64,000 nucleotides of DNA from Escherichia coli (GTDB taxonomy: Bacteria; Pseudomonadota; Gammaproteobacteria; Enterobacterales; Enterobacteriaceae). Positions 57,001 to 64,000 of the stretch are shown in pieces; position 1 is the stretch's first letter, and every line of letters begins with the position of its first letter. The stretch is from assembly GCF_045037415.1 (NCBI RefSeq), contig NZ_CP173438.1, one strand, 5' to 3'. A program made the position numbers.

Positions 57001-60000
57001 CCCGCCTTGTGGGCGGGTTCTTAAGAATTAGTGGTGCCCGGAATCGGAATGAAACTGATTGTATAACAAATTGTTTTATATAGATTATTTTGTATTTGTT
57101 GTTTTTGAGGCCACCAATGAGGCCCCCATGTGCAATTCGAATTCTTTTGACGCTATAATCCCTCTTTTTTGTGCTTTGCTGTAATCATTTGGTCTGGTTC
57201 GATATGCTGAATTGTGGAATCGTACTTAACGCGTTTGTTAGCTGGTCAGAACACTTAGCGCTGTTTGTCTGAAACTGGAATAGGCTTCTTCCCAGTTAAT
57301 CTGTGTATTACCAAATACCATCGGTTTAACAAATCGTTGAAAGCGCAATTTGTGTACAGGATAATCCCGGAGTGCATCCAGCCCTTTCTTAAGTTCATCA
57401 ACTGGTGAGCTACAAAATTGTGGGTACTGGTTACCATAGCTGAATACATATCTGAACAAAATTTTTCAATACAGGAACATTCACACCTTTTTCCCTGACA
57501 ATGCAGTAGTTGTCGTAAATGTGACGTACCAGAAACTCATCATCCTGTTGTTCGGGATTACGAAGATGTGCTGCTGTTCTTCGCATCATGGAGATGAGCT
57601 TTTCAGCCTGAGTGGATAAAATGGTGGCACAGGGGAATGCTGTTACAGGTGTACCTTTACCCGTTAACTCCGTGACAAGGGAATAAATATCTCTGCTTTC
57701 CGGATGTTCCAGCAGAGTGCTTTCCATCAACTCCAGCTTAATAAATGGACGAAGACAGGGGACTTGTGCAAATGTCTGGGGATAACGTACCGAGATTTCG
57801 TTATAACGATACTCATCACGTGTTATACGGGCGTTTTCATTATCCAAGCTGAAAATGTCAGAATTATGAATAACATCCGTGATTATTTGCACGATTTCCT
57901 TGCGAATTTTTCTTCTCTTGTCTCTGCCATTTTGCATAAAGTTCTCTGTTGGCACGAGCTTTATATCAATATCTTCTGACATTCTGTTTAGCGAGATACC
58001 TGCTTTTGATAATGCGGTACCTCCTGCAAACACGAGAGTATGTGTTTCTGGTTTTATTTCTTTTAATAATCTTAAAAGATCAACCACAAAATAATCTTTT
58101 TCGACGATAGCGACAGATTCAATATCCAGTGCATCGGCAACGTCAGGAAATAATGATGTTAATTCAGGCATTGATTTTACTTTTCCCTACTATTAACATT
58201 CTTTTAAATCGAGAAGGTGTTTTTATCCCCAGAGATACAGGAATTTGTGTGGACTGACTTTTATTGTAGCATTCCGTTGCTCCTGCCAGACGGTATCTGA
58301 TATTCAGGCGCTCCAGGGCCTCTGTAATTACTGCAGCAGAGCCCCCAGGCGCTGCGGGCATGATTTTCCCAGTGATGATGTTACGACGGGCTTTGGTGTA
58401 AACACCATAGCCCACTTTCATCAACTTACCTTCGTTTACCAGTGTACGAAGAGCTCTGCCAACCTGATCATAGCCAGCGATATCCCTGAAATCATCCCGG
58501 GTGAACACATAACGTTTTGAACGGTTCAGTCGGGACTGAATACGGTCTTTTGTAGTCATGTTTCCTCCGAAAAATTTTCACAATGATAGCAAAAATATGA
58601 CATGTTTAATAGCGGGGCAAGGCCACATTACCTGTCTGCTAATACATTTGGATAGTGCCTGGCAATTATGTCATTTAGCCTGTCAACCAGTTCTGGTTTC
58701 CTGAACGTGATGTGTGCGGAGCCCTTCTTAAAGTATCTGATGCTGAACATCTCATCTTCATAGCACGCTTTGCCCTGAACGGAGCGGATGTGATCATCCA
58801 GCCGAATGATGATATTTTCCCGGCTGTCGGGGATCGGTTTGCCGCTGAACAGATGCAGCATTCTTTCCAGGTCAGCGAGTCGATCTGCCTGTTGCCCGGT
58901 GATAAGATGCAATCCCCATCGGTCCCATCTCACCAGATTGTTGACGATAATTTTATTGCCAAATTTACAGGGGCAATTGGTTTTGTAATTCCAGCTCAGC
59001 CCTCTGAAGAGGTTGATCACACCTCGCTCAAACACGTCATCCTTATTCTGGTGCAGTTGTTCAAACGTACTCAGGATATTCGCCTCGCTGATTTCCGGAA
59101 AGTTATCGTACTCCAGTGAGCGGTACCATGTATCATGGGCCTGCGCATCCATTAATGACAGCATCCCGGAATGTTGCATCAGGTCACGCCAGATTTCGCG
59201 ATCGAGATTGCGGGTGATGGCTTTCATTGCGGTTTCCGGTTTCTCCATGAGCCAGCAGCCGCAGCGAAAATCCTGTTTCATCGCCCAGTCCAGGGCGGTT
59301 TTACCTCCAATACTTTCTGTCAGTACTGAGATTTCTGCCAGTTGCCGGATAAGTGTGTCGATTTGCAGCAGCGCACTCTTTCGTACAGCCAGAATGTGGC
59401 GGATACTGGTTGAGCAGATAACGTCCGTATGTCCGTTGACCAGTTCCGGGCGGGAGATTGTGATATCTGACATCATCGTTTTTCCTTTTGGTTTATAAAC
59501 GAAAACGCCAGCCGTATTCAGGCTGGCGTCAGTGGAATGAAGTCTGGTGAGTAAGACTCACCGGTTCTGTTGCAGAAGCTGCAGTTGGCGCAGGGTACGG
59601 ATATCTTCCCTGGCCTGTTTAATGCAGGGCAGCAGTGCTGCTGAATCCGTTTTATCCTCATCGTTGTCGAAGATAATCCCTGATTCGCAGTCAATATTGT
59701 CCTGCAGCCACGCAATCAGAATATACAGCGCTGTTTCCGTGGTTAATGATTTCATGTTGTGAATTTCCGGGTTACCAGTCGAAAGTGGGTAAATCCGGCA
59801 GGCATTCAGTGCTGGCATCCAGATGAATGAGACTGACGCCATAACGTCGGGTAAGTGTGACAACCAGACGGCGGAACGTTTTTGACAGCCCCAGGCGTTT
59901 AAGCCGCAGAACCGGGTATGACCACGCATCGGTACGTAACAGATATCCGCTACCTGTAAAATGAATCCATTCTGATTCGCCGGTGTCATTCGTCTGATGC

Positions 60001-63000: not shown

Positions 63001-64000
63001 TCATTCCCTGATGCAGCGGTTACGGAAACAGAAGATGTGGTGGAATTATGTGAAATGGTTTTCATGAAATGACTCCTTAAAGGACAAATAAATGCGTGGT
63101 TTTCAGGGTAATGGCTGAATCAGCGCAGGCTCTCCAGCAGGGTTTCCGCCATCACCCACAATGCGCGGTTGAGCTTAATGTCAGTGTCAATGCTGTGAAT
63201 GGCACGGGTATGGATACGTTTTCCTTTAGCGCTGCGACCTGAAATTCCGCCTTTCAGCATATTCTCCTGAATGGTCTGATAAGCACTCCACAGGTCCTTA
63301 CCGTAATCCTCCCGGCGTCGTGGCGTCAGAATGTCGGCGGTGGTGACGGGCTGATGTTCGTCACCATAACGGTAAGTCAGTGCCGCCTGTGCCAGCGCCT
63401 GGCGTGCCGGTGGCGGCAGAATCAGCGACTGCATGGCATCACGCTTTTCCTCAATCCGGTCAAACACGCCCACTACCTCGTAAGCCCCTTCAATGACTCT
63501 GTCCACCACATTTCCCCGGTGCGGAACACGCACTTCCCCCAGAGACTGACCACAGACGCACCCGTTCTGGCAGACGAACCTGAAGTAACCCGGCAGCATC
63601 TGGTAGCTGGAGGTACCGTCATGAGAGTTGAGCAGAATAATTTCAGGGACATGTTCTCCGTTTATCTCTCCGGCCCGCCGCAGACGCAGCATGTGTTTTG
63701 TGTATCCCCGGCGGCCCGGGTCGCGCACACGGGTCTGGCAGGCGAAGAATGGCTGAAAGCCTTCCCGCTGCAGGCTTTCCAGTACGGTGATGGTGGGGAT
63801 GTACGTATAGTTCTGGCTTCGGGACGTGTGTTTATCTTCCCCGAAAATCCCCGGCACATAGTGCATCAGTTCTTCGTGTGTCAGCGGACGGTCACGGCGT
63901 ATCTGGTTCGCATAACCAAAACGACTGGCTAGTCGCATAATTTGCTCCTTATCGGTGGTTAAGATTTACTGGTGTAATAAATGAAAAAAGCCGCGTCTCC

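Follow-up and report, generated by a model that had tools for sequence, protein, structure and literature searches.

A conserved module of an Escherichia coli pheV island and its ancestral gene for a 214-residue protein

We analyzed a 64,000-nucleotide (nt) stretch of Escherichia coli DNA (contig NZ_CP173438.1), hereafter the window, in which eight tightly packed open reading frames (ORFs) occupy positions 63938-59772 of the minus strand. This array is almost certainly the conserved distal, attR-proximal module, of CP4-44 type, of a ~76-kb island integrated at the tRNA gene pheV in the chromosome of an extraintestinal pathogenic E. coli. Between a yeeT-like gene and cbeA, it carries a gene for a 214-amino-acid (aa) protein of the DUF8835 family, which is an ancestral member of the module and may act in establishment of incoming DNA or against host defence. 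We put the probability of this overall explanation, a known pheV-island module plus an ancestral gene with such a role, at about 0.8; the role taken by itself is held much more tentatively, as set out below. Neither the sequence nor the island is new, the backbone being textbook material identical to deposited genomes. What the analysis adds is a precise island boundary, the recognition of K-12 as the derived state, and attention to a protein family that is common, misnamed, and structurally an orphan.

The array has the gene content and order of a CP4-type backbone

In brief, ORFs were mapped and searched against Pfam using curated gathering cut-offs, and NCBIfam, PADLOC, and PHROG searches were added. 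Seven of the eight ORFs in the array were assigned by Pfam far above the curated cut-offs. All are read on the minus strand, and identities to K-12 proteins are from BLASTP. The array opens with a 272-aa YfjQ-like DUF932 protein (63120-63938; PF06067, E 7e-52; WP_001234620.1) that is 75% identical to K-12 YfjQ. It is followed by a 161-aa antirestriction protein of the ArdB/KlcA type, YfjX/LfgA-like with 68% identity to YfjX (62580-63065), in which the PF03230 match (E 2e-37) spans the entire model at residues 66-161. The next two genes encode a RadC-like JAB protein orthologous to YeeS (62088-62579, with the RefSeq start at 62564; PF04002, E 8e-45; 99% identity to YeeS and 71% to YfjY/LfgB) and a 73-aa DUF987 protein orthologous to YeeT (61804-62025; PF06174, E 8e-39; 98.6% identity to YeeT). 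The gene for the 214-aa protein comes next (61141-61785; RefSeq WP_000094916.1), and then those for the type IV antitoxin CbeA, also known as YeeU (122 aa, 60723-61091; PF06154, E 6e-50; 93% identity to K-12 CbeA), the toxin CbtA, also known as YeeV (125 aa, 60257-60634; PF06755, E 2e-60; 85% identity to K-12 CbtA), and a 162-aa YeeW-like DUF5983 protein (59772-60260; PF25638, E 5e-32, and PF19419, E 1e-21; 71% identity to YeeW over 52 aa).

Spacing within the array ranges from a 4-nt overlap, where the start of the DUF5983 gene runs into the cbtA stop, to an 88-nt gap between cbeA and cbtA. The start of cbeA was taken from the sequence, where GAGGA stands 7 nt ahead of the ATG. The gene lies directly upstream of cbtA on one strand, and both score above their gathering thresholds. 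A sequence-only reading of this DNA had named six families here, in the order DUF932, antirestriction, RadC-like, YeeT-like, CbeA, and CbtA, and all six were recovered on the minus strand at the positions it gave. The low end it had set, 59772, is the end of a gene it had left unnamed, the DUF5983 gene at 60260-59772. Its proposal that the order mirrors CP4-type islands is borne out by the K-12 maps of CP4-44 and CP4-57 and by the orthology of the products to the proteins of these elements.

CbtA blocks the polymerization of FtsZ and MreB, and CbeA counteracts it by acting on the cytoskeleton rather than on the toxin; the pair helps to keep the element in which it resides. Proteins of the PF03230 family counter type I restriction. 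With 85-93% identity to the K-12 proteins, the CbtA/CbeA pair of the window is predicted to be a maintenance toxin-antitoxin pair working by the same mechanism. Likewise, close K-12 homologues suggest an ArdB/KlcA-type antirestriction role for the PF03230 protein and a protease role for the RadC-like protein.

The island ends inside the window, and the capsule locus adjoins it

The window is 100% identical to positions 749970-813969 of the chromosome of E. coli p4A, a blood isolate (NZ_CP049085.2). Its 59500-64000 part is also 100% identical in many further complete genomes, and 4999 of the 5426 complete E. coli genomes have at least one backbone-like copy (median, 3 per genome). The sequence-only reading had expected a tRNA-associated island beyond the window, and p4A has precisely this: the tRNA-Phe gene pheV (883100-883175) and a tyrosine integrase gene (881637-882902) lie 69.1 kb past the window end. 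Like P4-type integrases, the enzyme is built of Arm-DNA-bind_3, Phage_int_M, and Phage_integrase domains, and it is 35% identical to IntA of CP4-57. Just past the window end, p4A carries genes for DUF905, IrmA, a yeeR-like pseudogene, Ag43, a YeeP/YfjP-like GTPase, and YfjI. Further on, there are copies of the insertion sequence (IS) IS66, a sialic-acid gene cluster, iha, sat, iucABCD/iutA, and pap remnants, and then the integrase gene and pheV.

The opposite end of the island was found inside the window. When read in the orientation of pheV (minus strand), positions 57054-57032 match the 3' end of that gene at 20 of 23 nt, for an expectation of 0 in 100 shuffles. The match extends at 97% identity over 71 nt to the pheV 3' end and downstream terminator of K-12 (57053-56984). 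In this element, the terminal 23 nt of pheV recur in degenerate form (3 mismatches), followed by native downstream sequence and terminator (57031-56984), including a terminator-like hairpin at 57023-56995. With pheV, the integrase gene, and the direct repeat all present in the identical p4A record, we identify 57054-56984, on sequence grounds, as the attR junction of the ~76-kb pheV island. The module consists of genes for DUF932, antirestriction, RadC-like JAB, DUF987, DUF8835, CbeA, CbtA, DUF5983, and DUF957 proteins, continued by a DUF4942 gene, a decayed AbiE pair, and the pheV remnant.

Beyond attR, K-12 sequence resumes only at yghD (window 37465-35965). The kps locus and an IS110 remnant therefore fill the ~100-bp pheV-yghD gap, outside the island, and the kps capsule locus is a separate insertion adjoining the tRNA-integrated island rather than lying within it. 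The earlier suggestion that the capsule locus sits beside acquired DNA is upheld in that it adjoins the pheV island, but the boundary had to be refined, with attR already inside the window. The pheV site has thus taken up two separate acquisitions, the island and kps, which settles the context of the capsule locus. The IS110-family transposase remnant (56651-56833) is found at the island/capsule junction, between attR and kpsF.

K-12 remnants indicate that the 214-aa gene is ancestral

The gene between yeeT and cbeA has no intact counterpart in K-12, where the corresponding spacers measure 73 bp (yeeT-cbeA in CP4-44) and 37 bp (ypjJ-yfjZ in CP4-57). A genome of sequence type 131 (ST131) has the 214-aa gene, denoted X in gene orders, in the true CP4-44 orthologue, in the order yeeT-X-cbeA-cbtA-yeeW. 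The K-12 yeeT-cbeA spacer keeps the Shine-Dalgarno region and the first 8 codons of the gene (ATGAGCAGAATTATCGCCACTACC). This retained piece is identical to the ST131 copy at 31 of 34 nt, and the cbeA-proximal remainder of the spacer is identical to the window at 34 of 39 nt. Because the spacer retains the Shine-Dalgarno region and 8 codons, K-12 lost codons 9-214 by a ~640-bp deletion. These findings indicate that the 214-aa gene is an ancestral, optional member of the module and that K-12, not the window strain, represents the derived state. The sequence-only reading had called this gene an extra one, which is correct relative to CP4-44 and CP4-57 of K-12 but not in the sense of an insertion.

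The gene is present in 2024 of the 5426 complete E. coli genomes, more than one-third, at 2942 places and with up to 8 per genome. When set against ~14317 backbone copies, this means that roughly one-fifth carry it. An intact reading frame was found in 1942 genomes (coverage >=80%). The deletion in K-12 probably explains why a gene this frequent has escaped study. RefSeq names for the protein have been "hypothetical protein," "antitoxin of toxin-antitoxin stability system," and, recently, "DUF8835 domain-containing"; RefSeq genes 100% identical in DNA to that of the window (H17 and H18) bear the DUF8835 label.

The 214-aa protein is conserved and has no relative of known structure among the entries searched

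The ratio of nonsynonymous to synonymous substitution rates (dN/dS) is 0.17-0.21 for comparisons inside E. coli as well as for those between genera, in a set that leaves out pairs with one locus (L099) that has an indel and is out of register. At the sequence level, this indicates a real functional gene under purifying selection. The family is large, with 3483 clusters at 50% identity (E <=0.001). Enterobacterial copies are 58-71% identical among themselves and 56-64% identical to alphaproteobacterial ones, and comparison of 105 diverse members shows 23 positions at which at least 90% agree. The conserved residues include a G-F-x-x-Q-G-D-G-A-x-F-x-G loop (residues 77-89), Y139, H141, W177, Y179, and N202. 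Conservation of the protein is therefore strong over the range from E. coli to conjugative elements of alphaproteobacteria and to phages.

This conservation bears on the simplest alternative, that the gene is a drifting passenger of a decaying element, with no role for island or host. Such a view suits an island that is heavily decayed (IS elements, a frameshifted AbiEii gene, pseudogenes), the loss of the gene from K-12 with no known consequence, and the fact that most backbone copies are without it. We nevertheless consider it improbable, given the low dN/dS at both evolutionary depths, the 23 conserved positions, the number of genomes with an intact frame, and conservation of the family across bacterial classes and in phages.

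Database searches yielded one true sequence match, phrog_5162 (E 1e-34), a group with no assigned function. Searches of Pfam, NCBIfam, PADLOC, and PDB sequences, using both the single sequence and a 105-sequence profile, returned chance-level matches only, the Pfam copy being one without a DUF8835 model. An AlphaFold2 model shows a single globular alpha/beta protein, with a mean predicted local distance difference test (pLDDT) score of 96.7 and a predicted template-modelling score (pTM) of 0.89. When this model was compared with the PDB using Foldseek, the best hit had an E of 0.2, with no solved relative and none among anti-defence structures, and a fold search of BFVD returned only uncharacterised phage proteins. 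A literature search found no paper mentioning DUF8835.

The name "antitoxin" is unsupported

The older RefSeq name implies that the protein is an antitoxin of the Phd/YefM/StbD type from a toxin-antitoxin stability system. Many NCBI and UniRef entries of the family bear that name, and in Klebsiella and Salmonella the gene lies directly upstream of cbtA, an arrangement that would suit it. However, none of the 105 family members matches an antitoxin Pfam family at E <=0.01, and a globular alpha/beta protein of 214 aa is unlike the Phd/YefM proteins of 80-100 aa. Moreover, cbeA separates the gene from cbtA in the window and in most E. coli loci, and the alphaproteobacterial loci have no CbtA-family toxin nearby and no other toxin gene that recurs in our cluster survey. 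In the literature, "antitoxin of toxin-antitoxin stability" is a generic COG-style label, and newer RefSeq records have replaced it with DUF8835. We therefore regard the database name as unsupported and a Phd/YefM/StbD-type antitoxin as very improbable.

Outside Enterobacterales, the family travels with establishment genes

We then surveyed the family in a one-genome-per-species scan, which gave 80 loci, almost all alphaproteobacterial; with three further loci, 83 were surveyed (numbered L). Neighbours were defined by all-against-all clustering, with Pfam searches on cluster representatives, and clusters of antisense or low-complexity ORFs of GC-rich DNA were discarded. This showed a conserved same-strand neighbourhood around the family gene. 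Its most frequent members are a 145-aa gene with no Pfam match, immediately upstream and overlapping the start of the family gene (69 of 83 loci; e.g., L035 9571-10008), and a gene for a Strawberry-notch-type methylase-helicase of 1452 aa with AAA_34 and Helicase_C_4 domains (also 69 of 83). They are followed by genes for a ParB_N protein (59 loci), a Toprim/DUF7146 protein (54), a YAcAr SLOG protein (46), ArdC with its ArdcN and zincin peptidase domains (41), and RadC (15), the last figure coming from single-sequence phmmer with the window protein, which is insensitive for alphaproteobacterial loci. A profile search for CbeA and CbtA found neither in any alphaproteobacterial locus, and a PF03230 gene is nearby in all enterobacterial loci. 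The 145-aa upstream gene (L009-L088) has no counterpart in the E. coli backbone and is likely to be a functional partner of the family gene.

The carriers are mobile elements of several kinds. Among 110 plasmids carrying the family gene, 41 were typed as conjugative. In Tistrella (L002), the gene lies ~2 kb upstream of genes for a nikA-relaxase, a type IV coupling protein, and parA, and is oriented towards them, a placement that a leading-region position would allow. On a Haematobacter plasmid (L004), a family member is found with DUF932, RadC, and DUF6088/AbiE genes; the DUF6088 gene and AbiE pair sit directly downstream of it (L004 8703-11141), a neighbourhood that recurs across bacterial classes. 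The family is also carried by 88 phage genomes. Those of Caulobacter jumbo phages have two copies, because the gene is part of their long terminal repeat. These repeats are assumed to be the first DNA to enter the cell, as in other phages that have them.

The reading that we prefer is that the 214-aa protein serves incoming mobile DNA as an establishment or anti-defence (host-takeover) factor. We favour it because the family 1) accompanies genes for ArdC, ParB, methylase-helicase, and RadC on conjugative elements, 2) occupies phage terminal repeats, and 3) exists independently of CbeA/CbtA. The gene would be carried by integrative and conjugative elements (ICEs), plasmids, and phages and, in Enterobacterales, would have been captured into the cbeA-cbtA operon. 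Drawn from genomic context, this role is a tentative proposal, the leading candidate among several at less than even odds, with the remaining weight shared by the alternatives discussed here and by roles not yet conceived.

In the enterobacterial contexts examined, the gene abuts cbeA

The strongest competitor to an establishment role comes from the enterobacterial loci themselves. In all seven enterobacterial contexts examined, the 214-aa gene abuts cbeA, in one of two orders. The window and four other loci (L094, L098, L100, and L102) have DUF987-X-CbeA-CbtA, and Klebsiella (L091-93) and Salmonella (L049) have DUF987-CbeA-X-CbtA, with spacers of 13-33 nt or a 4-nt overlap; in Salmonella L049, the ATG of the 214-aa gene overlaps the cbeA stop. 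The two orders do not track the phylogeny of the 214-aa protein. The gene is thus found between cbeA and cbtA in Salmonella diarizonae (L049 9260-11086) and Klebsiella michiganensis (L091 5610-6996), the former also having a second, divergent CbeA-like gene just upstream (PF06154, E 6e-9).

A compact allele, in which a 34-bp deletion leaves a 15-nt spacer between the two genes, was found in ~454 of 5426 genomes, including the CP4-44 orthologue of ST131. Together with a TGA-to-TTA change, it gives rise to natural in-frame X::CbeA fusions of 342-343 aa, in more than 15 distinct sequences (e.g., L098/L099 5001-6032 and L100 885-1913). The fusion keeps an internal Shine-Dalgarno sequence and GTG start, from which CbeA could still be made separately. 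In an AlphaFold2 model of a natural 343-aa fusion (pTM 0.61), linker residues 218-245 have a pLDDT <50 and no confident interface is seen; this is a weak test, given a shallow CbeA alignment and no predicted aligned error.

These arrangements raise the possibility that the 214-aa protein belongs to the CbeA/CbtA module as its third component (a regulator, a chaperone, a second antidote, or an effector of cytoskeleton or division) that is co-expressed and acts in the same pathway. The constant contact with cbeA, in two orders independent of phylogeny, the compact allele, and the in-frame fusions all speak for it. However, the family is far wider than the pair, with alphaproteobacterial loci that have no CbeA/CbtA and 88 phage genomes among its carriers. 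In addition, most E. coli backbone copies are without the gene (~2942 vs ~14317), the CbeA/CbtA pair of K-12 works without it, no family member matches a Pfam antitoxin family, and the fusion model offers no confident interface, within the limits of that test. We rank this tie to CbeA/CbtA as the main rival of the establishment role, below it and unlikely.

Several observations weigh against the establishment or anti-defence role. The constant abutment to cbeA favours a toxin-antitoxin link, as do the X::CbeA fusions. Only 1-2 of the 83 loci have a relaxase or NikA gene at a distance of 10 kb or less, the ones where a strict leading-region position, beside oriT and opposite the relaxase, is arguable. 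The mostly acidic character of the family (median isoelectric point [pI] 4.7, median net charge -17) suits the proposed role, but the window copy is only mildly acidic (pI 5.5). Lastly, the pheV island is riddled with IS elements and pseudogenes and may no longer be mobile.

More speculatively still, DUF8835 might be the founding member of an uncharacterised class of early-acting mobile-DNA factors, with a fold absent from the PDB and common to ICEs, plasmids, jumbo-phage terminal repeats, and E. coli genomic islands, which would disable host defence or manipulate the cell on entry and, in Enterobacterales, would have become wired into the CbeA/CbtA operon and occasionally fused to CbeA; we consider this rather doubtful as it stands. 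If the protein does prove to be an anti-defence or host-takeover factor, a widespread family would be added to the catalogue of such factors, and this would help to explain the purpose of CP4 backbone genes.

The attR-proximal tail and other features of the window

Downstream of the eight-gene array, and also on the minus strand, lies a gene for a 65-aa DUF957 protein (59558-59755), of identical sequence to RefSeq WP_000839293.1 and with no match in the Pfam copy searched. It is followed by a terminator-like hairpin (59504-59530) with a 10-bp stem, 7 GC pairs, and a T-rich tail, which is a consensus match only. Next come genes for a 282-aa DUF4942 protein (58628-59476; PF13708, E 3e-68), a 131-aa DUF6088/AbiEi-like antitoxin (58164-58559; PADLOC AbiEi, E 2e-51; labelled DUF6088 in RefSeq), and an AbiEii/AbiGii nucleotidyltransferase toxin (57238-58171), the last being a frameshifted pseudogene named after a RefSeq entry of identical sequence, with the ORF broken at ~57431-57459. 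The AbiE pair at the island end is therefore half dead, with AbiEii frameshifted and the DUF6088/AbiEi-like gene intact.

In the capsule locus, region 2 (40096-47728) has a GC content of ~30% and is carried at >=80% coverage by 140 complete genomes. Its predicted products are a pantoate-beta-alanine-ligase-like protein, a TPR protein, a 1266-aa CDP-glycerol glycerophosphotransferase, XcbB/CpsF, and a hypothetical protein, a set that differs from the K5 kfi genes of otherwise near-identical genomes (e.g., strain 4/1-1). A JUMPstart element (38573-38611, plus strand), above the Rfam gathering score, stands just upstream of a kpsM-like ABC permease gene. An IS4 copy, itself frameshifted, has taken the place of sslE and of most of the type II secretion (gsp) operon at 33812-35754. 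Strain 4/1-1 has both intact, whereas the window keeps only yghD, a fragment of gspK, and a frameshifted gspL. Rfam matches above the gathering score also include STnc490 beside this IS4 copy (35165-35288, plus strand) and the small RNA C0719 near glcA (31694-31915, minus strand). Finally, 12857-22684, beside yghS, holds an accessory lipid-synthesis gene set that is unusual for E. coli: second copies of LptF and LptG, a YtfJ-family protein, a "lipopolysaccharide biosynthesis protein," serine palmitoyltransferase, an acyl carrier protein, an epimerase/dehydratase, and a fatty acyl-AMP ligase.

Comparison with known systems

The closest K-12 counterpart is CP4-44 (yeeP-flu-yeeR-yeeS-yeeT-cbeA-cbtA-yeeW), with which the window shares gene order and, for YeeS, YeeT, CbeA, and CbtA, the 99, 98.6, 93, and 85% identities given above. 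The likeness extends upstream, where p4A also has the GTPase and Ag43 genes. There are four differences. The window has an intact 214-aa gene between yeeT and cbeA, of which K-12 has only 8 codons; its YeeW homologue is full length at 162 aa, whereas K-12 YeeW is a 64-aa stub; a DUF932 gene and a PF03230 gene take the place of K-12 yeeR; and the module is found at pheV, not at the CP4-44 site.

In CP4-57, the order DUF932...antirestriction-RadC-DUF987-antitoxin-toxin is shared (yfjQ, then yfjX-yfjY-ypjJ-yfjZ-ypjF, or lfgABCDE), with proteins 64-75% identical. However, CP4-57 is integrated at ssrA, its yfjQ lies ~6 kb of other genes away from yfjX, its 37-bp ypjJ-yfjZ gap holds no 214-aa gene, and it is without the DUF5983/DUF957/DUF4942 tail. 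The yfjXY-ypjJ-yfjZ-ypjF (lfgABCDE) genes of CP4-57 have been described as one operon, and LfgB, its RadC paralogue, as a protease that degrades MqsA (PMC10846083).

With the pheV island of extraintestinal E. coli, which combines iha-sat-iuc/iutA-pap-Ag43 with adjacent group 2 kps genes, there is no sequence difference: it is the same island. Its attR junction (57054-56984) and the position of kps outside attR were defined in the present analysis.

The last comparison is with the antirestriction and establishment clusters of conjugative elements (ArdC, ParB-like nuclease, methylase-helicase, RadC, DUF932), in which the 214-aa family sits in alphaproteobacterial ICEs and plasmids. DUF932, RadC, antirestriction, and AbiE/DUF6088 genes are common to such clusters and the E. 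coli backbone. No relaxase, oriT, or type IV secretion genes were seen in the parts of the E. coli island that were examined. We know of no anti-defence activity for the 214-aa family. The papers on leading regions and on polyvalent proteins do not mention DUF8835. A survey of polyvalent proteins recognises RadC, CbtA, and antirestriction domains as conflict domains of conjugative elements (PMC5512222), and leading-region anti-defence islands include antirestriction and toxin-antitoxin genes (PMC11541004). Both accounts fit, by analogy, a view of the whole backbone as a putative establishment module.

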